Shown: in pieces, positions 7,068 to 40,954 of the stretch
Layout of the letters: each line of letters begins with the position of its first letter
How positions within the stretch are numbered: position 1 is the first letter of the stretch
Sequence record: NC_054909.1
DNA: 64,000 nt
Direction: 5' to 3' (one strand)
Source: Escherichia phage EC121
Translations under genes and position numbers: made by a program
Notes under the pieces: generated by a model
What the model saw: only the letters and a program-made list of their open reading frames with translations
The model's database searches: none
What the model was told of the DNA's origin: nothing

Positions 7068-7580
7068 TTATCTCATTTCAATAAAATCTACAAGTTCAGC
7101 ATGGGATTTGCGGAACATTACTTGGTGTCCGCCAATGATAACTTCATCTTCAGGAACTTCATAAATCGCAATGTACATTCCACGATCTTTTAAGTCTTCA
7201 CGCTCTTCTCGGGTGAACCATCTCATCATATCATATTCACTAGCGAAAGCAAAATGGTATAATGCAATAAACCGCGATGGAATATACTTTTCAGACGGTG
7301 AATAATTTTTATCCCATTTAGTTTTAATAGCATTATTAGCATTTTCAACTAATAACTTATCATCGTGTGGAATAGGAATACTTTCATGGCTTTCATAATT
7401 ATCGCTATGATGATGAAATGACGATGAATTAATACCACAAAATTTTAGCCAAGTTCGAGTTTTCATAGAATCAAATCCACGATAAGGAGTTGATTGCACG
7501 CATAACTCTTGCCTAATTTTCACTATACCACTATCATCATTTAATGCGCTAAACGATGATTCAACACGATAAATTTTCAT
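7068..7580 (-). CDS. hypothetical protein
   Basis: Track ORF trimmed to ATG at 7580 (MKIYRVESS...) with GAGGATAATAAA RBS; the longer track start falls inside the promoter. Confidence 0.5.
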   Translation of the reverse strand: MKIYRVESSFSALNDDSGIVKIRQELCVQSTPYRGFDSMKTRTWLKFCGINSSSFHHHSDNYESHESIPIPHDDKLLVENANNAIKTKWDKNYSPSEKYIPSRFIALYHFAFASEYDMMRWFTREEREDLKDRGMYIAIYEVPEDEVIIGGHQVMFRKSHAELVDFIEMR

Positions 7581-7605
7581 TTTATTATCCTCAGTAGCTA
7601 TGGTG

Positions 7606-7637
7606 TTATAATACCACAACTAACCGAGGAAGTAAAC
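7606..7637 (-). promoter_or_regulatory. early promoter (GTTTAC ... TATTAT)
   Basis: Minus strand GTTGTTTACTTCCTCGGTTAGTTGTGGTATTATAAC. Confidence 0.45.
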
Positions 7638-7643
7638 AACTTT

Positions 7644-8327
7644 TTATCGTTTTGTTGGAAGAGATAGAGGATCGCACTCTTCCTCTGACGGAGCATCTTC
7701 AAGACCCATAGCATACCGCAAAGCATACTTCATCATCAGGATGTCTTTCGCACAGTCATGAATAGAATCATGCGCAACGAACCCGTCTAAAGTTCCCTTT
7801 GGAAGAGGACATGTGGTCATATCACGAACAAGCAGAAGTGCTTCAATTCTGGTGCGAATATCGCGTTGATTCCAGAATTTACAAGGTTCTAACTTAAACG
7901 TATCAAGCTCATTCTCGGAAACGCCGTTAAGACGTTGAATATCGCGAATGAGATCAACTAAAATTGGAAAATCAAACGACATTCCACGGCACCAGCCCTG
8001 AGATTTCCAAGGATCGATATTATGCGCATTGATGTAATCATTAAATTTTGCAATACCATCGATAGTGCTTACATCTTCATCTGATGGCGCAATATTTTTT
8101 CGAGCTTCAGGAGATTGATTTTTCCACCATTCGATAGTGCTTTTAGTAAAAAGACGATGTCCTTTTTGGCTTTTTAAATCAAATTTGATTTTAATGCCGC
8201 GTGAAACTAATTCATCAAATGTTTCAACTACTTCTGGATTAGGGTCAAAGGCAATAACAGCCAAATCAATAACAGCTGCCTTTTCACCGCTTCCCATTGT
8301 TTCAAAATCTATAATAAAATCAAACAT
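7644..8327 (-). CDS. dexA: exonuclease A (DEDD-type 3-prime to 5-prime exonuclease)
   Basis: 227 aa; N-terminal IIDFETMG (DxE exonuclease motif I); size and position match T4 dexA. Confidence 0.8.
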   Translation of the reverse strand: MFDFIIDFETMGSGEKAAVIDLAVIAFDPNPEVVETFDELVSRGIKIKFDLKSQKGHRLFTKSTIEWWKNQSPEARKNIAPSDEDVSTIDGIAKFNDYINAHNIDPWKSQGWCRGMSFDFPILVDLIRDIQRLNGVSENELDTFKLEPCKFWNQRDIRTRIEALLLVRDMTTCPLPKGTLDGFVAHDSIHDCAKDILMMKYALRYAMGLEDAPSEEECDPLSLPTKR

Positions 8328-8602
8328 TAAATTTTCCTCGCTAAATCGCGAATTTGACCTACAGTATAATCTTGGATATAAACTTTATTAATAGGCTCAT
8401 CAATAAATTTTGCCATAGATTCAATATCTTTTTGTATCTCTTCAAGACTGTATACTATCTTTAAAGCTTTTTCGCGAATAGTAACATTATCAGGTCCTGA
8501 ATTTTCTTGGATGACAGCTTTAACATTTGTCATAAGAGATTTAAACTGCTGCAAACTTAATTCAATCATTAATAACCGCCTTATAAAGATGGCTAATTTC
8601 AC
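8327..8602 (-). CDS. small acidic helical protein (dexA-dda intergenic family)
   Basis: 91-aa ORF (probable start at internal ATG near 8569); same architecture as its two neighbours. Confidence 0.45.
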   Translation of the reverse strand: MKLAIFIRRLLMIELSLQQFKSLMTNVKAVIQENSGPDNVTIREKALKIVYSLEEIQKDIESMAKFIDEPINKVYIQDYTVGQIRDLARKI

Positions 8603-8822
8603 CTAAAACATAATCACTGATTGTAACAGTTTTCACTTCGCCGCAAAAGAATTCTAACGCAATCAAATCTCGTTCAATTTCTTCCAATTGAAGCATTAAC
8701 TTGCCTGATTCAATTTTCACGTTTTTGCGATTTTTACTATAAGCTATTTCATAAATTTCGCTCACTTTATCTTGAAGCAGATAAAACTGGTCTTTAGTTA
8801 TTTCCACGAATAGCTTCCTCAA
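8562..8822 (-). CDS. small acidic helical protein
   Basis: 86-aa ORF in tandem array; overlaps neighbours. Confidence 0.45.
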   Translation of the reverse strand: MRKLFVEITKDQFYLLQDKVSEIYEIAYSKNRKNVKIESGKLMLQLEEIERDLIALEFFCGEVKTVTISDYVLGEISHLYKAVIND

Positions 8823-9054
8823 ATTTAATCAGCAGCTTACAGACACTTTCATCTAATGTAATTACCGTGTCTGTATTACTATGATATGATTGTTTTTCAA
8901 TTCGTTTAATTGCTAGTATAGTATCACTTATAAGATTAAGCTTATAAAGGAGCTCAGCTCCTGTTATCATAACACTGAGGTTATCTTGCTTATCAGTATG
9001 CTTCTTTATACCATCTATTAGACGATTTAAATATTTTGAATTGATGTTAATCAT
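8794..9054 (-). CDS. small hypothetical protein
   Basis: 86-aa ORF directly downstream of dda. Confidence 0.45.
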   Translation of the reverse strand: MININSKYLNRLIDGIKKHTDKQDNLSVMITGAELLYKLNLISDTILAIKRIEKQSYHSNTDTVITLDESVCKLLIKFEEAIRGNN

Positions 9055-9060
9055 ATATCC

Positions 9061-10380
9061 TCACACATAAAACACATCATAACGACCACGAGTGACACCA
9101 ACATAAAGAAGCTGCTGAGCTAGTTCAGCATCTGCATAATGAATACAAGGCGTATAGATGAAAGCACGGTCTACAGACATGCCCTGAGCTTTATGGAATG
9201 TTGATGCAGGAAGTGCTTTCACTTTACTAAACTGTGATTTAGCATCCCAAAAATCACTCCACGGAGCTTTTCCACCTTTATTCCAATTTTTATACGTTTC
9301 TGCCGTTTTACCTAAAAATAAGTTAAACTTATACAGCTCTTCATCAGATGAAATTATTTTAATCTTTTCACGATAATATTCATCATCGCCGTAAGTTTCT
9401 ACTGTTAAATCCCAATAACGAATTAGATATTCTCCAGAAACACCACGAGCTTTAACAAATGTTGATGTATACTCTGCTTCTATAATACGAACTAATTGTC
9501 CGTTATTAAAAATAATTTCTGACACAGGCTTTCCATCAATTTTATATGTTTTAATTAATGGTTCCTGCATTACAATAATTTCACCAACGATAAAATCTTT
9601 ATCAGTTTCAAAAATCTTTTTGCGAATAATGCTATTTAACTTGTCGACAGATTTATTCGTAAATGCCATTACGCGATTTTCAAACAAATCATCTAGCGAT
9701 TTTACGATTGAAAAATAATTTACCATAAAATCGCGTAAAGCGGTATCACCAGTAAATCCACGTACTCCATGCCCGTCAACAACTTTATCATAAATCCACT
9801 TACCGTTGCGAACATCAGTAGCTACATCAATAATAGGAGCATTACTGCGTTTAACTTCAGTGAGTTCACACTGATAAAAATCTTTATGCGTAAAGAATGG
9901 ACTGATATAAGCAGTGTTTTCTCCTGGGTCAACAGGTCTAATTTGCTTATTATCGCCTATTCCAATTATAGTACACCACGGCGGGATAGTTGAAAGCAGA
10001 ATTTTAAATAGCTTTCTATCATACATTGACACTTCGTCGCAGATTAATACTCTGCATTTAGCTAAATCCGGTACTTCTTTTTGTTCAAAAAGAACGTTTT
10101 CTTCATATGTTACCGGGTTAATTTTGAGAATACTGTGAATAGTACTCGCTTCTTTCCCTGACAGTTTAGAAAGAATCTTTTTAGCTGCATGAGTAGGAGC
10201 TGCTAAAATAATGCCAGTTTCGCCCGTAGATATTAAGGCTTCAATGATGAACTTAGTAAGAGTAGTCTTACCAGTACCAGCAGGTCCATTAATAGTTACA
10301 TGATGTTTCTTTTCTTTAATAGCCCTCATAACGATGTTAAAGGCATTTTTCTGGCCTTCGGTCAAATCATCAAATGTCAT
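9061..10380 (-). CDS. dda: Dda DNA helicase (SF1B)
   Basis: 439 aa; Walker A GPAGTGKT; near-identical to recalled T4 Dda over its full length. Confidence 0.97.
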   Translation of the reverse strand: MTFDDLTEGQKNAFNIVMRAIKEKKHHVTINGPAGTGKTTLTKFIIEALISTGETGIILAAPTHAAKKILSKLSGKEASTIHSILKINPVTYEENVLFEQKEVPDLAKCRVLICDEVSMYDRKLFKILLSTIPPWCTIIGIGDNKQIRPVDPGENTAYISPFFTHKDFYQCELTEVKRSNAPIIDVATDVRNGKWIYDKVVDGHGVRGFTGDTALRDFMVNYFSIVKSLDDLFENRVMAFTNKSVDKLNSIIRKKIFETDKDFIVGEIIVMQEPLIKTYKIDGKPVSEIIFNNGQLVRIIEAEYTSTFVKARGVSGEYLIRYWDLTVETYGDDEYYREKIKIISSDEELYKFNLFLGKTAETYKNWNKGGKAPWSDFWDAKSQFSKVKALPASTFHKAQGMSVDRAFIYTPCIHYADAELAQQLLYVGVTRGRYDVFYV

Positions 10381-10688
10381 CGTAAATTCCCTGCAATTGG
10401 TATACTAACAATACGCCCAGTATCTAAAATTCGCCGATATAATCTTTGTGTGTCTACATCAGGCTTAACATGTTTAACTTCTATTTTATTAAACCAAAAC
10501 TTGCGTGGAGTCTCAACTAATCTCGGAATTCCCATACCTAAAGCTAGTCGATACTGATCTTTAAGAGTGGTAAATACTTTATCAGCAATCTCCCTTTCAA
10601 AAAATACAGCAGGGCGGTGTTCATCAAGAGGAACAGGCACTGCAAATCCATCTTTGTCTCTATACACTATCGCATATACATAAAACAT
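10377..10688 (-). CDS. hypothetical protein (dda.1 position)
   Basis: 103-aa ORF overlapping dda start by 4 nt. Confidence 0.55.
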   Translation of the reverse strand: MFYVYAIVYRDKDGFAVPVPLDEHRPAVFFEREIADKVFTTLKDQYRLALGMGIPRLVETPRKFWFNKIEVKHVKPDVDTQRLYRRILDTGRIVSIPIAGNLR

Positions 10689-10689
10689 A

Positions 10690-11436
10690 TTATCCTCGGA
10701 TAAGTTTAAAAATTGAACAATTTAGCGGGTATCCTCTTTTCAGTTTAAGTTTATCAATAAAAGACAAGTTTTGATACCGCTCTACACCTTGAATAATTTT
10801 ATCACACATATCATATTGCATTTCTGCTTCTGACAACTTTTTCACAGTTTTCCAATCAGAGCCTTTAAGAAGAACGTTCAATTTAACAACTTCAGCGCCT
10901 TCTGCTATACGAGAACCATCAATACGAGCTTTGAGTGCTACAATCGTTAGCTTAATGTCAGAGGTTTGTTTTGATTTAGAAAGCTGAGAAATGTGTTCAA
11001 TTCGGTTTTCACGTTTTTTCTGTATAGCTTTAATTTGATTATAAGTCTTTTTGATTTTAGCCCATTTCTTTTCATCTAAATTTAGTTTATGAACTTTTTT
11101 CGCAGATGAACGACCAATTCGCAAAGCAAATAAATCACGCTTTTCAATCAACTCTTCTAAAGTATAATCAGAACGAAATGTATTATACTTTTTCTTTACT
11201 GCAATAACATTCCCTTTAATGTATCCAACGTTATTATCAAAACGTTCTAATGATAATTTCTCTCCTTCAATACGATTATCAAAAGGTTCTCCTGAGTAAG
11301 CGCAAACTTTCTGGTCTAAAATGTTCTTAATGTAATTGAAGTCTAAGTTAAAATCTTTAGAACGTCTTTTTGCAGATGCCTGAGTATGCTCTAAACGACG
11401 TTTAATTTTACGAATTTGATTATTAGACAGTTTCAT
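10690..11436 (-). CDS. srd: Srd-like protein (basic, about 29 kDa)
   Basis: 248-aa basic ORF at the position of T4 srd between dda and modA; assignment by position and size only. Confidence 0.45.
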   Translation of the reverse strand: MKLSNNQIRKIKRRLEHTQASAKRRSKDFNLDFNYIKNILDQKVCAYSGEPFDNRIEGEKLSLERFDNNVGYIKGNVIAVKKKYNTFRSDYTLEELIEKRDLFALRIGRSSAKKVHKLNLDEKKWAKIKKTYNQIKAIQKKRENRIEHISQLSKSKQTSDIKLTIVALKARIDGSRIAEGAEVVKLNVLLKGSDWKTVKKLSEAEMQYDMCDKIIQGVERYQNLSFIDKLKLKRGYPLNCSIFKLIRG

Positions 11437-20204: not shown

Positions 20205-20549
20205 TTAAAAGAATTTAAATTTTTTCTTTGACCTTTTATTAAATGCATCTTGTAGTTGCATTGTAATACATTTTTCTACATGAGGAGCTAACTCAGCTTT
20301 TCTTTCTTGGTCAAGAACAGCAAAGTCCATTACGACTTTTCCATCAACCCAATCTAATTTTGTCACATACACAATGTGTGTAGAACCGTCTTCTAGTTTA
20401 ATGACAATCTCCTGGATAACATTTTCCATGGCAGATTTAATTATCTTAAGAGATTCATTAAAAAGACGTTCTTTTCTTTCTTCTTCCCCCTCCGAAGAGG
20501 GGGATTCATCGATAATTTCTAGATCTAAATCTAAATCATCTTTATTCAT
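20205..20549 (-). CDS. 40: gp40 head vertex assembly chaperone
   Basis: 114 aa from ATG at 20549; position between uvsX and 41. Confidence 0.7.
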   Translation of the reverse strand: MNKDDLDLDLEIIDESPSSEGEEERKERLFNESLKIIKSAMENVIQEIVIKLEDGSTHIVYVTKLDWVDGKVVMDFAVLDQERKAELAPHVEKCITMQLQDAFNKRSKKKFKFF

Positions 20550-21723
20550 TAAATTCTTCCATATCACTTAACTGATCTAGGTCAGTTTCTAAATCAGCTG
20601 CTGATTTACTTTTACTTTCTGGAGATTTAAATTTTTCAACCTTTGAGTTAATCAATTCATCAACTTCAGCTTCAACAATTTCATTACTATCAATAGCACC
20701 TAACTGATAAGCACGTTTAATAGCATCTCGGAATGGTTGATGCTTAAATAAAGGACCCCAGAATGTAGTGCAATTGGTATCTTTTGCACGCCAAGATTTT
20801 TCTTCGCGAATCATCTCGCCGGTTTCTTCGTCAAGAAATTCACGAGCATACCAGCCATTTTTAGGTTTTACCACAAATCCTAATTCAAGAGCCATATCTA
20901 ACAATCCAGAATAAGGATCGATACCACCGTCAAATTTAACATCAATAAAGAATTTACTTTTTTCTTTAACGGTACGAGATTTTTCTACATTTAGAACAAA
21001 TTGATACCCCTGAAGATCAGAACCATCTTTAATCTGGCGCTTACCGATAATGAATACAGTATCAGCCGAATACATTACGCCTGTACCACCTGTCATCACG
21101 GTTTTACTAAACATTTCAATTGTTTCAATTGTATGGTTAACCGCAACACATGGAATGTTTTTAATACTAAAATAAGGAGTAACAATACGGAATAATGACT
21201 TCAGTGATTTAGCACGAGTCATATCTGCCACAGATTTTTCATTCAAGGCATCTTCCGTTTCTTTCTTAGAAGCCATATTACCAATTGAGTCGATGAATAC
21301 AATAACTTTTTCACCACGCTCAATAGCTTCAAGCTGATTCACCATATCAATTTTCAGCTGTTCAACTGACTGGATTGGTGTATGAATTACTCGTTCCGGG
21401 TCAACTCCCATGGATCGCAAATAAGCTGGAGTAATACCAAATTCGCTATCATAGAATAGACATACCGCGTCAGGATATTTGTTCAAATACGCCGCAACCA
21501 TAGTCAAAGACATATTTGATTTAAAGTGTTTAGAAGGACCTGCAAAAATGGTTAAACCAGACTGCATACCACCGTCAATCGCACCAGAAATAGCGATATT
21601 AAGCATTGGGATTTTTGTACGGATTACATCCTTTTCATTAAAGAATTTAGATGTAGTCAGTTCAGCAGTCATTTTAGAAGTGGAAGCTTTAATCAAACGG
21701 GATTTTAAATCTGCAATAGACAT
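20542..21723 (-). CDS. uvsX: UvsX recombinase (RecA-like)
   Basis: 393 aa; matches recalled T4 UvsX along its length. Confidence 0.97.
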   Translation of the reverse strand: MSIADLKSRLIKASTSKMTAELTTSKFFNEKDVIRTKIPMLNIAISGAIDGGMQSGLTIFAGPSKHFKSNMSLTMVAAYLNKYPDAVCLFYDSEFGITPAYLRSMGVDPERVIHTPIQSVEQLKIDMVNQLEAIERGEKVIVFIDSIGNMASKKETEDALNEKSVADMTRAKSLKSLFRIVTPYFSIKNIPCVAVNHTIETIEMFSKTVMTGGTGVMYSADTVFIIGKRQIKDGSDLQGYQFVLNVEKSRTVKEKSKFFIDVKFDGGIDPYSGLLDMALELGFVVKPKNGWYAREFLDEETGEMIREEKSWRAKDTNCTTFWGPLFKHQPFRDAIKRAYQLGAIDSNEIVEAEVDELINSKVEKFKSPESKSKSAADLETDLDQLSDMEEFNE

Positions 21724-21800
21724 TCATTTTTTCCATAGGCAACATTATATTTTCCTCACTGGTTAAAGATAGAATAATTATAACACAATAAATTTAGGCA

Positions 21801-22643
21801 TTAATCAACTGCTATTGGATGAATAGCATTAAACTTATGAAACGCTTCTGATTTTTCTTTGCGCGAAACACACATGCGAAGAACTTTTAATGGCTCGTCT
21901 TCTTCACCCAACGATTTTCTCTTTTCGATATTCGATGTTTTCCAACGAGCTTGCTCTGGAAACTCTCTATTGATTTGCTCAAGAGCTCTATTATGTTTTG
22001 AATTACTACGAATTGAACTACATCCGCCTGGAGCTTGTGCTTTTCCAGATACAACCAGATATTTGAACAAGGCCAAATGCGGATAACCTTGATTAATTAA
22101 ATTGAGAAATGCATACATATCTTCGCATAAATCAATTTTTCCATACCCAATTTGTTCTGTCGTAAGTTTTCCAAGGTCATACCATGTATTCGTGAATCCA
22201 TATGAATTTTCACGATAATTACCCCAAGATGAAGTAATTTTAAAAATTGGTAGACGAGCATGGCCATGATAATATCCGCAATCCATGGCATCCTCAACAT
22301 ATTGAATCAATTCATAGAACTGTTCACGAGTTAATTGATTAATTTTATCTACACAGCGACGATCATCTTTCTTTCGCATTGAACTCATACGAATAGTAGT
22401 ATCATCGTCAATCATCCAAATTCGTTGACCTGCATACATATCAGTAATTGCTTTACGAGTACCAGCAATTCCATTGACATCATCAGGAATAGTTATAATT
22501 TTAGCTCTAGACCCATAAGCGTCATAATAAGCTTTTTCTTCGTGTTTACGTACTACAATATGAGGTTCATAATCAGATGGAAACATATCAAGGGCAGAAA
22601 CTGCCCCGACACGCTGATAACTTGGAATTACGAATTGAATCAT
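21801..22643 (-). CDS. GT-A fold glycosyltransferase at the beta-glucosyltransferase locus
   Basis: 280 aa; VIPSYQR start and IDDDT (DxD) motif; unlike recalled T4 beta-gt; sits between uvsX and gene 42. Confidence 0.6.
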   Translation of the reverse strand: MIQFVIPSYQRVGAVSALDMFPSDYEPHIVVRKHEEKAYYDAYGSRAKIITIPDDVNGIAGTRKAITDMYAGQRIWMIDDDTTIRMSSMRKKDDRRCVDKINQLTREQFYELIQYVEDAMDCGYYHGHARLPIFKITSSWGNYRENSYGFTNTWYDLGKLTTEQIGYGKIDLCEDMYAFLNLINQGYPHLALFKYLVVSGKAQAPGGCSSIRSNSKHNRALEQINREFPEQARWKTSNIEKRKSLGEEDEPLKVLRMCVSRKEKSEAFHKFNAIHPIAVD

Positions 22644-23281
22644 TTAAGTGCCTTACATTTGTCAAAATGGTATCTTGTCATATTTGGCCCACGTCCTTTT
22701 AGTCCGCAATGCGGACATATTTTTTCTATCAAATTATGAGGTTTTCCTTTACGATTTTTAGACATCGTTTCTTTAATTATTTTAGCTTTTTCTACGCCAA
22801 AAATTTCTTCATAAGTTTTACCAGAATTTTCCTTGGCTCGATTTATAATTCCATATGCCTGCTCATTTTTACCATACATTGGATTACCTTCGCCTTTCAT
22901 TCTTTTAGAATGATCAGGACGCTTGATTCCACGAAAGGCATTTCCGCACTTATATCTTTCTTCTGGAGATAGTTTTTTACCGTACATTCCATTTAATTTG
23001 CCTGGAAAACTTCCTCCCCATGCTTCATTCTTTAAATTATATGAATCCGGACAATTAGCAGCATCTAAACAAGTTAAAATAATTTCTTCAACCTGTCTAA
23101 ACATTGGTCCTTCATATAATATTTCTTTATTAAAGGATTTTATTCCATATTTCTTTTTAGCATGTTGCCAAACTACACCCGAACCATCATAATTCGGGTT
23201 GTGACCATCATGACTTCCTATATACCACTTTTTAGTTTTAGGATGTTTATACTTATAAACATGTGGCACATTTACTTCCAT
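22640..23281 (-). CDS. free-standing GIY-YIG homing endonuclease (Seg-like)
   Basis: 213 aa; VYKYKH...KWYIGS motif, repeated NUMOD-like segments (NPMYGK), C-terminal CPHCG...C zinc finger; paralog of 42362-43192. Confidence 0.7.
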   Translation of the reverse strand: MEVNVPHVYKYKHPKTKKWYIGSHDGHNPNYDGSGVVWQHAKKKYGIKSFNKEILYEGPMFRQVEEIILTCLDAANCPDSYNLKNEAWGGSFPGKLNGMYGKKLSPEERYKCGNAFRGIKRPDHSKRMKGEGNPMYGKNEQAYGIINRAKENSGKTYEEIFGVEKAKIIKETMSKNRKGKPHNLIEKICPHCGLKGRGPNMTRYHFDKCKALK

Positions 23282-24012
23282 TTTCCAGTATAATCCTTTT
23301 TAGCAATATGAGTCTCACCGGTGTTCCACCAATGGTCAACTAAATAAAACTGATTTTCGTACACATGAAGACTTCCAACGTTCCATATAATAGAACCTGC
23401 TTTATATTGCCGCGATGGGTCGCCTGCATTCAAATCAGATACTAATTTATCTAGTACGTATTTTTGCCAAGCATAATCATTACGATAGCCTGCCCAGCAA
23501 TCATTGCTTCTCATGCTAACAACCGCATTGACTTTCTTATCACGAATCAGGTACTGTACTGTATTAGTACACATGAAATCTGACATACCATCTTTATTGT
23601 AGTCAAATTGCATGGATGGACGAGTATAAATCATGATACCACGTCGAGAATCAGGATTTTGACCAAGTTCAGCTAAACACATATCATACTGGGCATAGTT
23701 ATTTTCTGACCAAATAGCCCAACCATAATTCGAGTTAATTTCGCCTTTAGAAGATGCTACCTGCTGCCAAATCTTTGGTGTTTCACCTGGAATATCTTTA
23801 ACAAACAAGCTCTTAGATTTATACCATTCAAGTTCGCGCTGAATGTATTCATCATTAAGAGCGCCAAAAATAAACGGTTCATCTGCTATAAATGATGCGC
23901 CAATAATTTCAATAGTTTTAACGCCAGTTTTATCAACTACGAAATCTTTTTCTTTTAATGCAAGCCCCAAATGAAGACGGATTTCTTCAACTGTCATAGA
24001 GTCACTAATCAT
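23272..24012 (-). CDS. 42: dCMP hydroxymethylase gp42
   Basis: 246 aa; near-identical to recalled T4 gp42. Confidence 0.96.
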   Translation of the reverse strand: MISDSMTVEEIRLHLGLALKEKDFVVDKTGVKTIEIIGASFIADEPFIFGALNDEYIQRELEWYKSKSLFVKDIPGETPKIWQQVASSKGEINSNYGWAIWSENNYAQYDMCLAELGQNPDSRRGIMIYTRPSMQFDYNKDGMSDFMCTNTVQYLIRDKKVNAVVSMRSNDCWAGYRNDYAWQKYVLDKLVSDLNAGDPSRQYKAGSIIWNVGSLHVYENQFYLVDHWWNTGETHIAKKDYTGKWK

Positions 24013-24019
24013 TTAAACC

Positions 24020-24169
24020 TCAATTGATACATTCATATTTAACTTGTAACAGTAATAAACCCCACCCTATGATAAGAGTTGGAATCATAGCAGGAACTGT
24101 TACGCTATAGTATATACTTATTATAACCATCAAGATTAAAAGCAACACTGCTATAATTTTGCTTTTCAT
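24020..24169 (-). CDS. small membrane protein
   Basis: 49-aa hydrophobic ORF not in the track; its ATG overlaps the imm stop in an ATGA arrangement. Confidence 0.45.
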   Translation of the reverse strand: MKSKIIAVLLLILMVIISIYYSVTVPAMIPTLIIGWGLLLLQVKYECIN

Positions 24170-24417
24170 TCCTTCTCTCTGATGATAATTACCTGATTTG
24201 GTTGTGCAGACTTTTTAGTTTCACCCACAATTGACCAAATAAATGTAATAAACCAACCAATAATTGACCAGTTAAACAGTAAAGATGTGAAAAAGATTCC
24301 TACTGTCGATTTTGACCCACGCATCAAGGCGATAAACCATGGAAGCATGTATATAATAATAGCCAACACACCTGAAACTAAAACCATAAAAATTGAACCT
24401 GCTACTAAAGTTTCCAT
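24166..24417 (-). CDS. imm: immunity protein Imm (superinfection exclusion)
   Basis: 83-aa polytopic membrane protein; size, position and sequence as recalled for T4 Imm. Confidence 0.85.
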   Translation of the reverse strand: METLVAGSIFMVLVSGVLAIIIYMLPWFIALMRGSKSTVGIFFTSLLFNWSIIGWFITFIWSIVGETKKSAQPNQVIIIREKE

Positions 24418-24424: not shown

Positions 24425-24805
24425 TCACTTAGTCAAATTTTTTACACATGAATTATAAGAATTCACTACATACTCCATCGGAGCATTTTTACCAGTACGC
24501 CATTGGTAATTATTAGCCCAATTAGCCCAAATTTCGGCGCAGTAATTTTCAATTTTTTCTTCGCGTGTAATTACATCCGAATTACGATATGCTTGAGCAG
24601 ATTCATCTGGACGAATAGCTTCGTCAAAATTCGCCTGCATTTGTTCGACTGTTTGCTTTGGAGCTTCTTTATAACACTTGACATTAGGATTATAAAATTT
24701 GCTTGAACAGTTTACAATTTTTCCTACATCAGACTGATTTACTACCGGTCCTTGAGCTACACAACCAGTAAGACCTAATGCAATAACCAAAATAGCGATT
24801 TTCAT
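24425..24805 (-). CDS. predicted lipoprotein
   Basis: 126 aa; signal peptide with lipobox LTGC. Confidence 0.5.
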   Translation of the reverse strand: MKIAILVIALGLTGCVAQGPVVNQSDVGKIVNCSSKFYNPNVKCYKEAPKQTVEQMQANFDEAIRPDESAQAYRNSDVITREEKIENYCAEIWANWANNYQWRTGKNAPMEYVVNSYNSCVKNLTK

Positions 24806-24815: not shown

Positions 24816-25052
24816 TCAAATGCAAGTAGTAATTACTCCAGTAGTGCTTATGCAGGTATTACCCATTTGCACACCTAAAGATCCATTTGTATTCACATGA
24901 AGATTATCATCAATTTTAACTGATATTTTACCATTAGTGTGAATAACGGTGCTAGATTTAATCACAGGTTGAGTATCATTTTCAACACTAACAAATGGAA
25001 CTGCTACTAATGCAACTAAACAAACTGCTAAACATCCCATAACAATTTTCAT
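24816..25052 (-). CDS. small secreted/membrane protein
   Basis: 78 aa from ATG at 25052 (track start is TTG); hydrophobic N-terminus; driven by cassette copy B. Confidence 0.5.
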   Translation of the reverse strand: MKIVMGCLAVCLVALVAVPFVSVENDTQPVIKSSTVIHTNGKISVKIDDNLHVNTNGSLGVQMGNTCISTTGVITTCI

Positions 25053-25150
25053 TTTATTCTCCAAATCTGTATCAGTAGTTGATAGTTGTATAGTACCACA
25101 GAAGAACAGTCTTGTAAACAGTTTTGTGAAAATTTTTTAGGGAATTCTAA
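25053..25150 (-). repeat. promoter-leader cassette copy B
   Basis: CCCTAAAAAATTTTCACAAAACTGTTTAC, 17 nt, GGTACTATACAACTATCAACTACTGATACAGATTTGGAGAATAAAAATG; homologous to copies at 5.9 and 53.1 kb. Confidence 0.6.
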
Positions 25151-29957: not shown

Positions 29958-30644
29958 TTAAAAATCGTGGGTAGAATCAGCTTCAAGAGCTACTACATAA
30001 TTCGCGTGTTCACCTTCAAATTTAGCAGCACCTTGTTTACCTTTTGCCCAGAGCAGAAGTTTATAATTTCCTGGTTGCATTTTCATATTTGCCATATTGA
30101 TAATGAAATTAAATGTATTTTCACCATCATAATCACCAAGAGTCAAAGAATATTTAACACGGGTCAAAGCAGAATCTTCTACTTTATTAAAACCGTTAAT
30201 TACGATTTTACCTTCTTTTACTGTGATAGCAATTGTATCAATCTGCAGACCACGAGATACACGCAACAGTTGTTGAAGGTCTTCAGCTTTAATTTCAGTA
30301 ACAACAGATGCTACCGGGAATGGAATTGGTTTATTAGGAGCAACTACTGTACTCGGATCGGCTGCTGGCCAAAAAATTGTTGAACGGGCATCAGCAATTT
30401 TAATATTTCCATCTTCTGACTGGGAAATTTCTGCATCATCATTAACTAGAGACAGAATACCGAGAAAACCGTTCAAATCGTAAATTGCTACATCAAAATC
30501 AATAACGTCAGAAATATTTGCTTCCGCATAAGTTGTACCATTAACTGCGCGAGTCATAATAAATTGACCTGATTTAAGCATAATGCCAGAGTTAATAGTA
30601 GCGAAATTTTTCAAAATATTCAGTGTGTCTTTAGATAATTTCAT
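29958..30644 (-). CDS. 45: sliding clamp gp45
   Basis: 228 aa; size and position as in T4. Confidence 0.92.
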   Translation of the reverse strand: MKLSKDTLNILKNFATINSGIMLKSGQFIMTRAVNGTTYAEANISDVIDFDVAIYDLNGFLGILSLVNDDAEISQSEDGNIKIADARSTIFWPAADPSTVVAPNKPIPFPVASVVTEIKAEDLQQLLRVSRGLQIDTIAITVKEGKIVINGFNKVEDSALTRVKYSLTLGDYDGENTFNFIINMANMKMQPGNYKLLLWAKGKQGAAKFEGEHANYVVALEADSTHDF

Positions 30645-31387
30645 TTCAATTTCCTATTTACATAATAGTTAGACCAGGACCGTACAGCACCCTGATAAGA
30701 TTCGTCGTTAAACCCATTAGCTACTGCAATTTTACGAAATTTATTATAACTTGGTTTTCCGTAAGCATGCCATAAAGATTTTAATTCATCTTCATGTTCA
30801 ATCCAAGTTCCTCTAGCTTTAGATTTTCTAAATTTTGATTTGAATTCCGGTAAATTATTTCTAACAGTTGCTTGAATTGAAGCTCTCTGTCTTCTTTCAG
30901 CATTATTCCATAATTCTTTTTGAGATTTAGAAATTTTTGATCTTACACTTTCTGAATTCATTATATCACTAAACTTTTTAGCATAACTACAATCAAGATA
31001 TTTCAATTTCATCTTATTTGAGAGTTTAAGCTTTTTCTCATCGGTCCAGTGATTCTTCATTGAATTAGATATTTTGTATTTTACTTCAGAACTATGTTTG
31101 TAACCTTTACGAATACCGACATACTCAGGCGTAATTTCAGATTGCGAAAGCTTTACAATTTTTCCAGTTAAAACATTTTTATATGTTCCATATCCTTTAG
31201 CACCAATTAAAGTATTTTCATCTGCGTATGCTTTATTAAAATATTTTATATTACTTTTTGCTTTAACTTTTAATTGAAAAAATCTCTCCAATTTTCTTGG
31301 ATCTAATATAGTTTCAGCTAAAATTTTGACGGTATATTTAGTGGTTTTAATAAGTTCAAAATATTCATCGCTATAACTCGATGACAC
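30641..31387 (-). CDS. homing-endonuclease-like protein, N-terminus unresolved
   Basis: 248 aa starting at GTG; NUMOD-like repeats; C-terminal domain shared with the HNH protein at 33867-34721; 44 in-frame codons upstream carry no start codon. Confidence 0.5.
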   Translation of the reverse strand: MSSSYSDEYFELIKTTKYTVKILAETILDPRKLERFFQLKVKAKSNIKYFNKAYADENTLIGAKGYGTYKNVLTGKIVKLSQSEITPEYVGIRKGYKHSSEVKYKISNSMKNHWTDEKKLKLSNKMKLKYLDCSYAKKFSDIMNSESVRSKISKSQKELWNNAERRQRASIQATVRNNLPEFKSKFRKSKARGTWIEHEDELKSLWHAYGKPSYNKFRKIAVANGFNDESYQGAVRSWSNYYVNRKLK

Positions 31388-31525
31388 GCTTCCAGTATAA
31401 ATCTTTCCAGCTGAATCAATTATATTTGTTCCATCGAAAATTGCGTTAATTTTTGAACCTATATAATAACACGGGAAAAATATTTTTAGCTTCCCGCTCT
31501 GGAAAGCTAATAAGATATACTAAAT

Positions 31526-31915
31526 TCATTTATTAAACTCGGCCACAATTGTTTCCGCAACAATTTGTGCAGCAACAATCAGACGTTCATCTGCATTACC
31601 GCAATAATCATCTTCAAGGCGTTCACCACATGAAGTCATAATAAATTTAGCACCGGCGTTTAGGGATTCTGCAGTATGTTTGCGCATTAGTTCAATCCAT
31701 TTATTACTTACTTCACGATCGATAGCTTCATAATACGCATGACGAGCAGGTGCAGATTTAATTTTGTTCTGAATAACTTCCATTGCGTTATCAGAAAGAG
31801 ACAAAACCCATGCGCGACGAATTTTATTTTGGTTTTGCGGATTTGAGTCAGAACGCACGTGTTTTGGCTGAATATCTTTTACATCAACAGTATAATTCAC
31901 AGTAATTTTAGTCAT
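31526..31915 (-). CDS. rpbA: RNA polymerase-binding protein RpbA
   Basis: 129 aa; matches recalled T4 RpbA. Confidence 0.85.
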
Positions 31916-31924
31916 AATACACCT

Positions 31925-32113
31925 TTAGTCATAATAATCAGTAACAGTCCAAGCTTCATTTCTATTGGACATTATTTTTGTATATTCTGCTTTAAATGCA
32001 TTCCTAAGCATAGATTCAGTAACTATATGCTCTTCATTAGAAAAATTATTTCTCAGAATATATCGTTTTATTTCAGGAAAAGTTAATAGATGCTGTCCAG
32101 TTGAATATTCCAT
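31925..32113 (-). CDS. small hypothetical protein
   Basis: 62-aa ORF between gene 46 and rpbA. Confidence 0.45.
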   Translation of the reverse strand: MEYSTGQHLLTFPEIKRYILRNNFSNEEHIVTESMLRNAFKAEYTKIMSNRNEAWTVTDYYD

Positions 32114-32168
32114 GTTTTTCCTCCATAGAGATTATACTCTAATAAATTAAAGCATAATCTCTTATAAA

Positions 32169-33851
32169 TTAAACCATTACAGTAAATCGACCAACTTTCT
32201 TCATTTGAAGATGCTGACCGTATTCTTGCGGGTCATGGTCTTTATGCGAAATTATAAAAACATTAGTGTTTTTCATTGAATTTATAATATTAGCTACACC
32301 TTTAATACCTTCGGCATCAAATGACCCATCAAACACTTCATCGAGTATTAATGTACTAATACTAACACCAGATACAATAGAAGCAATATCACGCCAAGTA
32401 AATAAAAGAGCAATATCAATTCTTGCTTTTTCACCTTCACTAAATGAAGCATAACTAAAATCTTCGCGACCACGGGATTTAATTGTCTCATTAAATTCTT
32501 CATCTAATGTAAACACATAATCCGCTTCCATTATTTTAAGATAATGGTTAATCTGCTTATTAAATAATGGAATGTACTTTTTAATAATAGCACCTTTAAT
32601 ACCAGAATCTTTGAGCATATCAGTCAAAATTCCTCGGTGGTATTTTTCCATTACTAAATTAGTTTTTGTCTTAACAATTTTATCAAGTTCTTCTTGAAGC
32701 AGTGCTATTTCATCAGCATGGTCAATAAACTCAGAAGATGCTTTTTCTATAGCCGCTTTAACCTTTTTAGCTTTATCTACTGTCGTGATTAGAGATTGCT
32801 TTTTATTGCGAATATCATTTGCCAACGACTGTTGGGTTTTAATATTATCTCGGTATTCATCAACAAGAACTTTTAAATTATCACGATGCGTTGAAAGCTG
32901 CTCAAACGAATGCGTGCATTCAGAAACTTTATCTTTAATTTTAGAAACAACTTTATCACCGGAACTCAATTGTGACAAACAGGTTGGACATAATCCACCT
33001 TCGTGATACATATTAATGACTTTATTATACGAGTCAATTTTCGATTTAATTAAAAATGCTTCTTGGCCGATTTTATTAAATGCATCAGTCGGGTCTTCAT
33101 CCAAAACAATATTAACTAATCTTTCATTAGCTTCTTCTATTTCCGATTTTAGCGTTCTAGCTTCTTTTGCTAAATCATCATACATATTTTGCAGACGAGT
33201 AAGGTTGTCACCCGTTAATTTTTTCTGGCGTTCAACGTTATCATTATATATTTTAATTTGTTGGATAATATTATCTTTTTTAACATCAAGCACCTGGTTC
33301 TGCGAATTTAATTCACGTATTAGTGCTTTATTAAGCTTATCCATTTCAGCTAATGTTCCTACCTCAAGCAGGTCTTCCACAAGCTTTCTTCGCGCAGGGG
33401 TCGACAAACCCATGAAAGGGGTATACCCTGCTGTACCAAGGACAACAATCTGCTTGAAACTGGCATATGACATTCCGATAAGCTGTTCAAATTCTGCTTG
33501 GAAATCTTTACTGCTGGCAGATTCATTAAGACGTGTACCGTTAACGGTGATTTCGAAAACGTTTGGTTTTTGTCCTCTTTTGATATAGTACTTTTTCTCA
33601 TCATATTCCATCCACAGTTCAACTAAAAGTTCTTTCTTATTTGTGCTGTTTATTAATTGACCTTTCTTTACATCACGAAATGGCTTGCCAAAAAGCCCAA
33701 ATGTGATGGCTTCTAGCATAGTAGACTTACCACCGCCATTTCGTCCAGTAATAAGAGTTTTTTGAACCTTATCTAATTGAATGTCAACTCCATTTTGACC
33801 AACTGACATTATATTTTTATATTTTACTCTATTAAGTTTAAATGATTTCAT
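32169..33851 (-). CDS. 46: recombination endonuclease subunit gp46 (SbcC/Rad50-like)
   Basis: 560 aa; Walker A GRNGGGKST, coiled-coil middle, CPTC zinc hook, ABC signature. Confidence 0.96.
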   Translation of the reverse strand: MKSFKLNRVKYKNIMSVGQNGVDIQLDKVQKTLITGRNGGGKSTMLEAITFGLFGKPFRDVKKGQLINSTNKKELLVELWMEYDEKKYYIKRGQKPNVFEITVNGTRLNESASSKDFQAEFEQLIGMSYASFKQIVVLGTAGYTPFMGLSTPARRKLVEDLLEVGTLAEMDKLNKALIRELNSQNQVLDVKKDNIIQQIKIYNDNVERQKKLTGDNLTRLQNMYDDLAKEARTLKSEIEEANERLVNIVLDEDPTDAFNKIGQEAFLIKSKIDSYNKVINMYHEGGLCPTCLSQLSSGDKVVSKIKDKVSECTHSFEQLSTHRDNLKVLVDEYRDNIKTQQSLANDIRNKKQSLITTVDKAKKVKAAIEKASSEFIDHADEIALLQEELDKIVKTKTNLVMEKYHRGILTDMLKDSGIKGAIIKKYIPLFNKQINHYLKIMEADYVFTLDEEFNETIKSRGREDFSYASFSEGEKARIDIALLFTWRDIASIVSGVSISTLILDEVFDGSFDAEGIKGVANIINSMKNTNVFIISHKDHDPQEYGQHLQMKKVGRFTVMV

Positions 33852-33866
33852 TTTGTATCCAATTGT

Positions 33867-34721
33867 TCACAATGAAGAAAATTCTTTAACTAAAGCCTGT
33901 AATGAAGCCTCTATTGGATATCCATTCTTAACTAACATTTTCCTAAACATTACATGTTTAGGACGATTATATGATATCCACAATTCATACAATTTATCTT
34001 TATTATCCCAATGATAGCCTTTTCGTCGAGATGCTATATGAGCTTTTCTAATCTCCGGATTTTTCCAACTAGCAGCTACTGAATTTGATATAGCTATTTT
34101 ATATTCAGGTTTTGATAAAGCAGCACGAACAGCCTTTTGGTGTTTAATTTTATTTTCTTCGTTATTAAACCATTCCCTTGAAGCCATTGAAATTTTTTGT
34201 TTTGTTTTAAAATTATTTAATCTTTCTTTATTATCTTTCCTATTTTTTGCTACTGAAAAATATTTTAATGCCCTTTCTCTAGCAGCATTTCTATTTTGCG
34301 GATTTGAATAATACTGTTGAAGCCTTTTTGATATTGTGTCACTTACATCTTGTTTTATAAAACTATATTCAGCAGCTATTAAATCAACTTCGGCTAAAGA
34401 TAAATTTTTATATGTTTTTCCTGACATCATTCTATTTAAAGCATTTAACATTTTTCCATTTTTACCTTTTGCTAATAAGAAGTGTGCTTTAAAATGATTA
34501 AAATGACTTAAATTAACTAAATTCCATGTAGATTTTAAATATTCAGGAAATATTGATTTAGGAAGCACGTGGTGTGCTTCCGTTTTACCTGGAGTTTTAA
34601 CAGTTGAATTCACAGAAATAAAATTAATGTAAGACTTGGCGTCTTCTTCACTCAACGCTAATTTTTCAACTAATTCCTTTATTAAAAATTCATCATTAAT
34701 GTCAAGTTTAAAATTCTTCAC
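33867..34721 (-). CDS. free-standing HNH homing endonuclease (Mob-like)
   Basis: 284 aa from GTG with AAGGA RBS; HNH motif TEAHHVLPKS; NUMOD-like repeats. Confidence 0.7.
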   Translation of the reverse strand: MKNFKLDINDEFLIKELVEKLALSEEDAKSYINFISVNSTVKTPGKTEAHHVLPKSIFPEYLKSTWNLVNLSHFNHFKAHFLLAKGKNGKMLNALNRMMSGKTYKNLSLAEVDLIAAEYSFIKQDVSDTISKRLQQYYSNPQNRNAARERALKYFSVAKNRKDNKERLNNFKTKQKISMASREWFNNEENKIKHQKAVRAALSKPEYKIAISNSVAASWKNPEIRKAHIASRRKGYHWDNKDKLYELWISYNRPKHVMFRKMLVKNGYPIEASLQALVKEFSSL

Positions 34722-34981
34722 AAAAGATTCCTTTTAATGTATCTTTTAGACCATTCTATCATATCATCATAATCTAAAAAGTATTCATCAAATTCAGCCA
34801 TGCAAACAACACCTTGTGCTGCTTTTGATGTGATATAAATTATTCCAACATATCTAGAATCTTCTTCGGTATAATCAATATTTGCTATGAATTCATCGTT
34901 AATGTCAAATGTCGAAAACTTCACAATATGCATCCTTAATACAAGATACAGCCATATCTTGTAATGATTTAGGTGTGTCAT
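34718..34981 (-). CDS. small hypothetical protein whose 5-prime region is duplicated in the HNH gene start
   Basis: 87-aa ORF; segment FDINDEFIANI mirrors LDINDEFLIKEL of the HNH gene; overlaps the upstream ORF, start uncertain. Confidence 0.35.
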   Translation of the reverse strand: MTHLNHYKIWLYLVLRMHIVKFSTFDINDEFIANIDYTEEDSRYVGIIYITSKAAQGVVCMAEFDEYFLDYDDMIEWSKRYIKRNLL

Positions 34982-35168
34982 TATCTAAAATGTTGAAGTT
35001 AAAAGATACAGCCCAGTCAGTGCAGACCGTAACCTTTTTAATACAATTATCTTCAACCTCTAGCGGTTCAAACCAATATTCAATAATTTCTTTATGCCCA
35101 ATATCATCTTTTACTTCGCATTCAAAATGCTGACTCATCATAACATTTTTAAATTCATCAAAAGTCAT
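34905..35168 (-). CDS. small hypothetical protein
   Basis: 87-aa ORF overlapping the gene 47 stop by 4 nt. Confidence 0.45.
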   Translation of the reverse strand: MTFDEFKNVMMSQHFECEVKDDIGHKEIIEYWFEPLEVEDNCIKKVTVCTDWAVSFNFNILDNDTPKSLQDMAVSCIKDAYCEVFDI

Positions 35169-36184
35169 TGTGTTGCCTCTACATATAGCTGATTCGCATA
35201 TTGAATAAGTGCTTCACGGTCAGAATCAGTGATGTCTGGAATTGCATTAATGTATTCTTCCATCAACGTCTGAAGAGATTGAACTTCAACTTCTTCACTG
35301 TCATCTGACTCGACAGAGTTATCAATCTTTGACACAACTCGTAACGAATGCACAACTTTTTCTAGTTCAGATTCGAACTTCGTCAGATTTTTGTCTACTT
35401 CAGTTACTATAACACGTACTGATAGATTTGTAAAATCTTTATAGTCAATTTTTCCCTTAAATGGATATTGAATTCGACGATGCCAGGTAGTGTTGTTTGG
35501 AATAAATTCCATTCGTTCTGTTTCTGTGTCAAACATCCAGAACCCACGAGGGTCATTCTCGTCACCTGCAGTTAGTGTCCATGGTGTCCCAATATATCTG
35601 ACGTTTGCAGCCTCAGAAATAGTATGGAAGTGACCAGACCACACTTCTTTATAAGTCTTAAGGAAATCAGGTTCAAGACCGTGAGATTTCATTCCTTTAT
35701 AAAAATAAAATCCATTCAGTTCCCAGTGACCAACACAAAAAGAAGCAGATGAAGTTTTGATGTGTTCAAGAATTTCACCAGTATTTTCTTCGCACATCCA
35801 AGGAATTAAATCAATCAAACACCCGTCAAAATCTACTGTTGTAGGCTTATCATATACTTTAACATTAGGATATTTAGCCAAAAGCTCAGTAGAGGCATTT
35901 GGATGCATTACATTTTTGTAGTGGAGATCGTGATTTCCTACAATAGTATGTAGGGTAATACCAGCACCATCAAGCATTTGAACTATTTCACGGGCAAACT
36001 CCATAGTTTTATGCGTGATCGCTTTTCGCACATCAAAAATATCACCGTATTGAATCCATACCGTAATTCCATTTTTCTTAGAATATTCTATCGCTTGCTT
36101 AATTCCATCAATTTGAATACCGCGAATCCACTCATCATCAGCTTTAACGCCTAAATGCCAATCACCTAAATTTAAAATTTTCAT
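35165..36184 (-). CDS. 47: recombination nuclease subunit gp47 (SbcD/Mre11-like)
   Basis: 339 aa; calcineurin-like phosphoesterase motifs (DWHLG, GNHD). Confidence 0.96.
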   Translation of the reverse strand: MKILNLGDWHLGVKADDEWIRGIQIDGIKQAIEYSKKNGITVWIQYGDIFDVRKAITHKTMEFAREIVQMLDGAGITLHTIVGNHDLHYKNVMHPNASTELLAKYPNVKVYDKPTTVDFDGCLIDLIPWMCEENTGEILEHIKTSSASFCVGHWELNGFYFYKGMKSHGLEPDFLKTYKEVWSGHFHTISEAANVRYIGTPWTLTAGDENDPRGFWMFDTETERMEFIPNNTTWHRRIQYPFKGKIDYKDFTNLSVRVIVTEVDKNLTKFESELEKVVHSLRVVSKIDNSVESDDSEEVEVQSLQTLMEEYINAIPDITDSDREALIQYANQLYVEATQ

Positions 36185-36321
36185 ATATCAAGAACCGTCA
36201 TTGAAATGCAAAATAAAATTATTGAAATAAATCCATCTGGAGTGCTAAAGAACCCAATCCAACATGCTCTAGTGAATAGATAAAATGCAAGAAAAAGTAT
36301 CACATATCCAAGAAATATCAT
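36181..36321 (-). CDS. small membrane protein
   Basis: 46-aa hydrophobic ORF not in the track; its stop overlaps the gp47 ATG (ATGA). Confidence 0.4.
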   Translation of the reverse strand: MIFLGYVILFLAFYLFTRACWIGFFSTPDGFISIILFCISMTVLDI

Positions 36322-36344
36322 TATATCAAACTCCGTATAAAGCT

Positions 36345-36362
36345 AAAGGGCCGAAGCCCTTT
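36345..36362 (-). terminator. stem-loop GGGCUUCGGCCC at the alpha-gt stop
   Basis: UUCG hairpin overlapping the TAA stop of alpha-gt; T-rich flanks. Confidence 0.45.
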
Positions 36363-37563
36363 ATTTTGTAATAATGTCAAACTGTTCTTTAAAGCAGAAG
36401 CTTGAATCTTGATGCTGATACAAAAATTCATAAGCTTTTTCACGTTCGCGGTCATAAAGAGTTCGGTCAGATGACAGTTCTTTAATACGTTCAAATGTTG
36501 ATTCCATGTCATTTTCATCAAACCAAACGATACCGCTATCATGAGAAATTAATGGAGTATTATCAACACGGAATTTTAAATTTTCGCCTGTAGATTTCCA
36601 AAATACCGGAATTGTTCCACATGCACCAAGCTCGAGATGAGTATATTCTAAAGAACGTTGTAGATATTTTTTATCCAACTTACTCAACTGATAACCAAAT
36701 CCGGATTTACTCATGCGTTCAAGCATTTCGCTATTTACATAACGGTCAAGAATTTGCGTTGGCAAATTAGGAGCAATTTTAATTTGGTCTACTTGATGAA
36801 GACGATAATACTCGTATGGAATTCCTTTTTCTTTAATAGGAATGAACGCTGGAGAACGTTCCAGACCTTCCATAATAGTACTTAGTCCTGCAGGTTTAAG
36901 ATGTTTTTCATGAAAATCAAACATCTGATAAAAACCTTTCCATGTAGTCGTACGACCAATCCAACGGTTAACATTCATGTTAACTTCAGAAACATCTTTC
37001 CAGTAGGTTGACCGAACCTTCGCAATATCCATAGGAGGCTGAAAGTTATATACGGTCGGTGCTTCTTCAATATCATCAAACAGAGAAACTGTTTCTGGAT
37101 ACCATTCTTTCATCAAAACTTTATTAAAATCGCCATTATCAGAATGACTAAAAATAACATCAGCTCGACGAACAGTTTCTTCTAATCCCAAATTTCGGCG
37201 CAAAGAAAGAGAAGAATGGTCATGTTGATAAACTACAACACGAACCGAAGGCTTAATGTTATCAATAATTTTTTTATAGTTATTAATAGTGTCTTCTTCG
37301 ACCGAAGTAGCAGGAACTGAATTGATAATTAGAATATCACAATCATTTACCAGCTTAAGTGTTTTATCGTATTCTTTTGCCAATAAAACCGGAATTGAAA
37401 ATGATTTATAATCATGCGCACAATTACGAGTAAATGATTTATCTTTAGCATAAACCAAAGTTACTTCATGACCATTTTTAATAAACCAATCACGTTGCTC
37501 AAGAGAAAATTTAGTTACACCACAACCTTCAAGACCTCGAGCCATAAAAATACATACTTTCAT
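36361..37563 (-). CDS. agt: DNA alpha-glucosyltransferase
   Basis: 400 aa; near-identical to recalled T4 alpha-gt. Confidence 0.96.
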   Translation of the reverse strand: MKVCIFMARGLEGCGVTKFSLEQRDWFIKNGHEVTLVYAKDKSFTRNCAHDYKSFSIPVLLAKEYDKTLKLVNDCDILIINSVPATSVEEDTINNYKKIIDNIKPSVRVVVYQHDHSSLSLRRNLGLEETVRRADVIFSHSDNGDFNKVLMKEWYPETVSLFDDIEEAPTVYNFQPPMDIAKVRSTYWKDVSEVNMNVNRWIGRTTTWKGFYQMFDFHEKHLKPAGLSTIMEGLERSPAFIPIKEKGIPYEYYRLHQVDQIKIAPNLPTQILDRYVNSEMLERMSKSGFGYQLSKLDKKYLQRSLEYTHLELGACGTIPVFWKSTGENLKFRVDNTPLISHDSGIVWFDENDMESTFERIKELSSDRTLYDREREKAYEFLYQHQDSSFCFKEQFDIITK

Positions 37564-38296: not shown

Positions 38297-38297
38297 A

Positions 38298-39617: not shown

Positions 39618-39619
39618 AA

Positions 39620-40948: not shown

Positions 40949-40954
40949 CCCGTC

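Follow-up and report, generated by a model that had tools for sequence, protein, structure and literature searches.

The closest described systems for the gene reported here are the free-standing homing endonucleases of the T-even phages. SegF and SegG of T4, which target gene 56 and gene 32, cut within the conserved upstream gene, away from the insertion point, and the sequence from the cut up to the endonuclease gene is then co-converted during repair, which excludes the markers of a rival phage (PMC2988022). The same paper describes segC, segF, mobA and mobC as promoter-less, with a start overlapping the upstream stop, and lists SegA and SegC of T4 as mobile (Table 1 in PMC2988022); SegH was described by Sandegren et al. 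2005, as cited there. We analyzed a stretch of 64,000 nucleotides (nt) of Escherichia phage EC121 (NC_054909.1), hereafter the window, in which an unnamed open reading frame (ORF) lies directly downstream of gene 42, the gene for deoxycytidine monophosphate (dCMP) hydroxymethylase (Table 1). Based on its domains, its insertion site and the diversity around it, we propose that this ORF probably encodes a free-standing endonuclease of the T4 Seg type, belonging to a subfamily specialized on gp42-like deoxypyrimidine hydroxymethylase genes and targeting the 3' end of gene 42.

The protein comprises a GIY-YIG nuclease domain, a NUMOD3-like linker and a conserved C-terminal CCHC knuckle. Recognition of the nuclease domain needed a family profile together with a structure model, as Pfam, searched with this sequence by itself, returned nothing beyond a NUMOD3 match under the threshold (PF07460, 18.0 bits vs. 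a cut-off of 20.4, E=0.0027) without recognition by the GIY-YIG models, and phmmer of the single sequence vs. PDB yielded no meaningful match. Sixty-four homologues were found at E<=1e-5, and motif conservation was counted in a family alignment of 33 sequences (32 family members for the zinc knuckle). The GIY and YIG motifs correspond to V8-Y9-K10 and Y20-I21-G22, with Y9 in 31/33 and both Y20 and G22 in 33/33; further motif residues of the domain are Y31-x-G33-S34-G35, K44-Y-G46, E65/E66 and N82, the last of these being invariant (33/33), while E65 is found in 25/33 and E66 in 21/33, with aspartic acid in another 5. A hidden Markov model (HMM) alignment pairs the nuclease domain with residues 4-96 of I-TevI and spans both the metal-binding glutamic acid (I-TevI E75) and the conserved asparagine (I-TevI N90), each of which has a counterpart in our protein. 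The structure model, with strands E7-12, E19-24 and E51-57 and helices H36-45 and H61-72, confidently displays the alpha/beta fold of GIY-YIG nucleases. At the other end, the C189-x2-C192...H205-x3-C209 zinc knuckle is present in all 32 aligned family members, with the module duplicated in P0013, P0048, P0053 and P0056. A sequence-only reading had previously assigned to this locus a 213-residue ORF between the glycosyltransferase gene and gene 42, carrying a GIY-YIG core, NUMOD-like repeats and a C-terminal zinc finger; its coordinates, overlaps and quoted peptide strings were correct, and both the core and the finger are borne out by the data above. The repeats fared less clearly, with many homologues having precomputed PF07460 and PF19835 matches and one unit being matched in SegH (see below), but with our own sequence staying below the Pfam cut-off.

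The sequence is also under constraint. Against the copy of Klebsiella phage KP185, the ratio of nonsynonymous to synonymous substitution (dN/dS) is 0.17 overall, with 0.15 in the nuclease half and 0.17 in the rest, and we therefore conclude that the protein is maintained by purifying selection. The start codon is backed by homologues with similar beginnings, as exemplified by KP185 ('METIGHVYKY', with a 13-nt overlap with gene 42). Many records call the ORF a 'hypothetical protein' or leave it unannotated, as might be expected of a chance ORF or a mis-annotation with no real gene behind it; this explanation is refuted by the number of homologues, the confident fold, the conserved motifs and start, and the low dN/dS.

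One canonical feature of the fold is missing. In the HMM alignment to 1MK0, a 10-residue gap lies opposite the I-TevI segment 'sakdfekrwk', and the equivalent of the catalytic arginine (I-TevI R27) is absent from the entire family, with Q39/H40 in our protein vs. lysine or arginine in about half of the relatives. T4 SegA and SegC are likewise without the R27 helix segment of I-TevI, and because both are listed as mobile endonucleases, we do not read this absence as decay; it is instead a trait of the Seg subgroup. We have also considered Q39 (arginine in SegH) as a mark of a dead active site and rejected it, as the whole family as well as T4 SegA and SegC lack the R27 segment. K44 (30/33) and R62 (24/33) are candidate substitutes for the catalytic arginine. 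The same region bears on an alternative, namely that the protein is a catalytically dead or domesticated derivative that has kept DNA binding and lost cutting, persisting as a regulator or binder of the gene 42/glucosyltransferase region or by linkage alone to a favored gene 42 allele. The missing arginine with Q39/H40 in place of the relatives' lysine or arginine, the failure of the Pfam GIY-YIG models, the weak translation signals and the lack of an own promoter all speak for such a derivative, but we deem it very unlikely, as evidenced by: 1) the same shortened core in T4 SegA and SegC, both listed as mobile (PMC2988022); 2) Y9, Y20, G22 and N82 being invariant or nearly so, with E65/E66 in the majority of sequences; 3) a dN/dS in the nuclease half as low as that in the DNA-binding half; and 4) the block of low diversity around the gene, which argues for recent drive.

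The gene is a promoter-less cassette inserted exactly at the overlap of the gene 42 stop and the glucosyltransferase start. Its ATG is positioned 10 nt inside gene 42, overlapping the stop codon at 23272-23274 as the earlier reading had it, and its TGA shares an ATGA with the start of the beta-alpha-gt gene (4-nt overlap). Promoter-like sites are not enriched around the ORF (11 found vs. 12.7 expected) and the scan for promoters and terminators at this locus was uninformative; an own promoter is absent, and the translation signals are weak. A G+C-rich hairpin, GGGGCAGTTTCTGCCCT, followed by a T-rich run, is located at 22591-22607 on the minus strand just inside the 5' end of beta-alpha-gt and the fPS-2 record labels it a terminator; where the junction alignment covers it, phages with empty sites show no change, so it is seemingly not specific to the insertion.

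To delineate the distribution of the gene, we used a synthetic 'empty junction' query, which retrieved 473 phage records with beta-alpha-gt next to gene 42. The ORF is found in ~76 of these at >=95% identity (70 at >=99%), or ~16%, vs. roughly 390 precise empty sites, where the stop of gene 42 shares an ATGA with the start of the glucosyltransferase gene (T2, RB5, wV7, T4_ev151 and pSe_SNUABM_01 among them). T4 has a 23-bp spacer between beta-gt and gene 42 with no gene there, its segA being located between uvsX and beta-gt. The prior view of the ORF as an accessory insertion at a junction where T4 has no gene thus agrees with its presence in a minority of junctions. The gene lies between genes, outside any intron or intein, and is a precise presence/absence polymorphism among close relatives. 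The carriers belong to several Tequatrovirus species of the International Committee on Taxonomy of Viruses (ICTV) and are mosaic elsewhere; the notion that they form a single clade was rejected due to this mosaicism and the lack of general closeness to the window outside the block (sliding identity, 22 kb), the non-carriers being mosaic as well. As an example, HY03 with the ORF and pSe_SNUABM_01 without it share an insertion in uvsX and differ at the gene 42 locus. The records of both phages (L009 and L007, locus coordinates) split uvsX into annotated segments at 7095-7742 and 8651-9580, with an endonuclease ORF of 723 nt (7885-8607) lying between them. Beyond this genus, Jiaodavirus phages of Klebsiella have the same order of glycosyltransferase gene, ORF and gene 42, with 70% amino acid identity in the ORF product.

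Damaged copies also occur. The copy in Klebsiella phage Roth04 (L002, 3440-4130) has a frameshift near codon 42, and its annotation, which begins at an internal start, is that of a 185-residue 'GIY-YIG catalytic domain protein' that is actually without the GIY-YIG motifs. In Klebsiella phage vB_KpnM_GF, a 633-bp deletion has taken out the greater part of the ORF along with the final 109 nt of gene 42 (around 3501-3597 in L003 vs. 2592-3224 in KP185, L033), so that gene 42 is annotated as a truncated 'dCMP hydroxymethylase'; either the element was lost imprecisely or the assembly is at fault, the record being marked 'partial genome'. Length variants of 1 nt are found in REP2 and PYps5T.

We compared diversity over 22 kb between 7 carriers (the window and L008-L013) and 7 non-carriers (L004-L007 and L014-L016). 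Nucleotide diversity (pi) among carriers was 0.77% in the ORF and 1.85% in the gene 42 tract vs. 5.55% in the adjoining half of beta-alpha-gt. Divergence between carriers and non-carriers (dxy) was 17.5% in the tract 23282-23520, or 20.9% without two recombinant empty alleles, compared with 3.2-5.4% in the neighboring segments; a differentiated tract on the glucosyltransferase side was looked for in the same phages and none was found. The differences are clustered in four patches, some with amino acid changes beside active-site motifs, including MRSND-CWAGY-RND in carriers vs. MRSND-VVFGF-RND in non-carriers and HVY-ENQ vs. HVY-SRH, along with six-fold codon switches inside MRSND itself (AGA AGC vs. 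CGC TCA); no universal codon signature at the MRSND patch was found across all carrier lineages. The carrier-type residues match those of Jiaodavirus gp42 (CWAGY, QNQ, IAKKDY), and across nt 481-540 of gene 42 the carrier tract is 83% identical to KP185 vs. 63% for the T2 type. As for the two recombinant non-carriers, in T4_ev151 (L005) the tract is of the carrier type apart from its final ~40 nt, while pSe_SNUABM_01 (L007) has the distal patch only. In both records gene 42 is at 10497-11237 with CWAGY in the carrier-type tail, ENQ being found in T4_ev151 only. Both are candidates for cleavage-immune alleles without the endonuclease gene or for products of its loss. The putative signature of co-conversion is one of populations, consisting of a one-sided block of ~240 bp, low pi among carriers and recombinant empty alleles, and such a one-sided block is what the SegF/SegG mechanism predicts.

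The same data have to be weighed against an older origin, in which the ancestor shared by Tequatrovirus and Jiaodavirus already had the gene between gene 42 and the glucosyltransferase gene, with the patchiness of the gene due to deletion and ordinary recombination, not homing. Several observations fit this scenario: the locus is the same in both genera, deletions and frameshifts of the ORF exist, the gene 42 tail of carriers is nearer to Jiaodavirus than is the T2-type tail (with CWAGY and Q/ENQ shared), and the divergence of the ORF between the genera (dS 1.43, dN 0.24) equals that of gene 42 (dS 1.41, dN 0.23). Long vertical residence with repeated loss is therefore possible as the main cause of patchiness. 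Nevertheless, we regard ancestral residence as rather unlikely overall. The low pi of the ORF next to the far more diverse glucosyltransferase half points to recent spread of one copy through diverged backgrounds, the carriers are mosaic and of several species, and every one of the ~390 empty sites is precise and keeps its ATGA intact, a uniformity that independent deletions would not yield; in addition, relatives of the gene hold the position next to a gp42-like gene in unrelated genomic contexts.

In 7/7 metagenomic relatives with 43-57% identity, a gp42-type PF00303 gene (220-338 residues) with MRS(N/T)D...ND and not the canonical ThyA pattern precedes the endonuclease gene at a distance of 6-60 nt. 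The downstream neighbors of these relatives all differ, comprising the uvsX region, an IMPDH-like gene, a DEAD helicase, NTP-transferases, a T4-type glucosyltransferase and unknowns. With Tequatrovirus and Jiaodavirus included, homologues with 43-70% identity are directly 3' of a gp42-like gene in 9/9 contexts, and L026 also encodes a canonical thymidylate synthase, yet this is not the neighbor of the endonuclease gene. The association no longer holds for relatives with <=33% identity (ValKK3, Acinetobacter phage Konradin and P0062). The conserved neighborhood argues that the clade recognizes a sequence in gp42-like genes.

Taken together, these findings lead us to postulate the following course of events for the Seg-type endonuclease. 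The enzyme would cut within the conserved upstream gene 42 of a rival phage, in the stretch equivalent to window positions 23282-23520, most likely near the MRSND or HVY patches, as the strongest differences flank these active-site codons. After resection of the break, the recombination machinery of the phage itself would use the carrier genome for repair, a process that would copy the gene 42 tail of the carrier together with the endonuclease gene into the recipient, the intervening stretch being necessarily co-converted. The carrier's own gene 42 tail, ~18-21% different, is presumed to be poorly cut, and the tract 23282-23520 is the predicted place of both the target and the immunity polymorphisms. 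Expression would be kept low by the absence of a promoter and by the overlap of start and stop. Both the cleavage activity of the endonuclease and the immunity of the carrier allele are inferred.

Several points weigh against our reading. Besides the absent R27 equivalent and the equal divergence of the ORF and gene 42 discussed above, these are: 1) the cut position in 23282-23520 of the T2-type allele is predicted, not observed; 2) the tract could be a haplotype imported once, linked to the gene merely by adjacency and not repeatedly co-converted; and 3) our literature searches returned no paper on a gene 42-adjacent endonuclease and no cleavage or homing assay of one.

A more speculative extension, to which we assign a low likelihood, is that the clade with 43-70% identity is a dedicated homing lineage of hydroxymethylase genes in which the CCHC knuckle reads the conserved MRSND...ND/HVY stretch, which codes for the active site of gp42-like proteins, in DNA with hydroxymethylcytosine (hmC) or glucosyl-hmC, with the spread of the lineage moving CWAGY/ENQ and VVFGF/SRH, as functional variants beside the active site, between phage genera. 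If this holds, the CCHC knuckle would be a previously undescribed DNA-recognition module, and the endonuclease, no neutral passenger, would shape the evolution of a base-modification enzyme.

Part of this picture is already known, as the gene bears GenBank labels such as 'similar to segC', 'homing endonuclease' and 'site-specific intron-like DNA endonuclease'. What is mildly new is a clade specific to gp42, together with a conserved CCHC module at the end of the protein and a block in gene 42 with sharp limits. Our analysis enlarges the set of free-standing GIY-YIG homing endonucleases of T-even phages by one, with the 3' end of gene 42 as predicted target, and leaves the current understanding of homing endonucleases unchanged. 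It explains the sharply mosaic segment of gene 42 in Tequatrovirus genomes, and the association of the clade with gp42 is useful for annotating the many records that read 'hypothetical protein'. The endonuclease may also offer a site-specific nuclease that acts on hmC-modified DNA.

Table 1. Features of the gene 42 locus and of the SegH gene, in window coordinates (aa, amino acids)
Feature	Position	Strand	Description and basis
Endonuclease ORF	22640-23281	-	213 aa, ATG start; probably a free-standing Seg-type GIY-YIG homing endonuclease gene, unnamed
Gene 42 (dCMP hydroxymethylase)	23272-24012	-	Upstream neighbor, presumed target; Pfam Thymidylat_synt E=1e-14; annotation of homologous records
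Gene 42 stop codon	23272-23274	-	
Beta-glucosyl-HMC-alpha-glucosyltransferase gene (beta-alpha-gt)	21801-22643	-	Downstream neighbor; Pfam TAGT E=1.7e-9, annotations and empty-site structure
GIY-YIG catalytic domain	22997-23263	-	Approx. aa 7-95; family alignment, HMM alignment to I-TevI, structure model
NUMOD3-like linker	22865-22996	-	Approx. aa 96-139 (NGMYGKK...GEGNPMYGK)
C-terminal CCHC zinc knuckle	22643-22717	-	aa 189-213, CPHC-x12-H-x3-C, GPNMTRYHFDKC
Last ~240 bp of gene 42	23282-23520	-	Haplotype block with the endonuclease gene; putative co-conversion tract
SegH gene between nrdD and nrdG	42362-43192	-	Identity to RB3 segH; Pfam NUMOD3, I-TevI_DNA-bd, SegE_GIY-YIG

The window derives from a T2/T6-like Tequatrovirus genome, with a best database identity of 98.0% over 21500-24300 and ~96-97% over 30000-50000; for the stretches compared, no identical phage record was found among the database records, the maximum being ~98%. 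As judged by the ORF list and Pfam, the order on the minus strand is gene 43, three small ORFs (24816-25064, 24425-24805 and 24166-24417, the last being imm), gene 42, the endonuclease ORF, beta-alpha-gt and uvsX, which is intact in the window (20542-21723). Other endonuclease-like genes were noticed in passing. Between gene 45 (29958-30644) and rpbA (31526-31915), a 248-residue ORF with a GTG start (30641-31387, minus strand), absent from 13/13 Tequatrovirus loci compared, aligns with PHROG 655 'homing endonuclease' (E=1.6e-31), starting at position 63 of the profile, with no Pfam match. This ORF probably represents a further free-standing endonuclease gene, which may be truncated at its N-terminal end. 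Some carriers also harbor endonuclease-like ORFs in their soc/56/dam region, at 906-1742 in ACG-C40 (L008) and at 1683-2519 and 3029-3679 in fPS-2 (L012), one of which is annotated 'similar to SegA'.

Among known systems, the only relative within the window is SegH, there being no third member of the family encoded in it. The product of the ORF at 42362-43192 is 100% identical to that of RB3 segH (AY262138.2, annotated segH/nrdD/nrdG), and the gene sits where T4 has mobC. Like the gene 42-adjacent endonuclease, SegH is free-standing and beside a nucleotide-metabolism gene, and the two proteins share the nuclease domain and one NUMOD3 unit: pairwise BLASTP gave E=6e-11 with 34% identity over 134 residues, and a second match to the NUMOD3 unit of SegH had E=0.001. 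The N-terminal similarity put forward by the sequence-only reading hence extends beyond a short motif, but its term 'paralogous' applies at the family level only, as SegH has 276 residues, a C-terminal DNA-binding domain of the I-TevI type (PF20987) and no zinc knuckle, and targets the nrdD/nrdG region rather than gene 42. Given this limited identity and the differing C-terminal domains, we have rejected SegH as an orthologue or recent duplicate; the two are relatives at the family level.

The closest protein of T4 is SegC, with 35% identity over residues 7-138 (tblastn E=2e-7). It has the same shortened core, 'Y.G.H....Y.GSG......A.KKYG..F...I', without the R27 helix of I-TevI, and segC is also promoter-less with a start overlapping the upstream gene, by 20 bp vs. 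10 nt here (PMC2988022). SegC as annotated has 140 residues and no CCHC zinc knuckle, with a likeness that does not go beyond the nuclease domain and first NUMOD unit, and segC lies between genes 5.1 and 5.3, another locus and presumably another target; an orthologue relationship was rejected in view of the different locus and the confined similarity. I-TevI itself differs in being encoded in an intron (the td intron), in carrying R27 on a helix segment absent from our protein and in having a helix-turn-helix end in place of the CCHC knuckle. The region of SegC was the only match in T4, the similarity of SegF and SegG to our protein being below the tblastn threshold; it is nevertheless the mechanism of these two enzymes that we propose for the gene 42-adjacent endonuclease, since its anatomy and population pattern fit the SegF/SegG model (PMC2988022).

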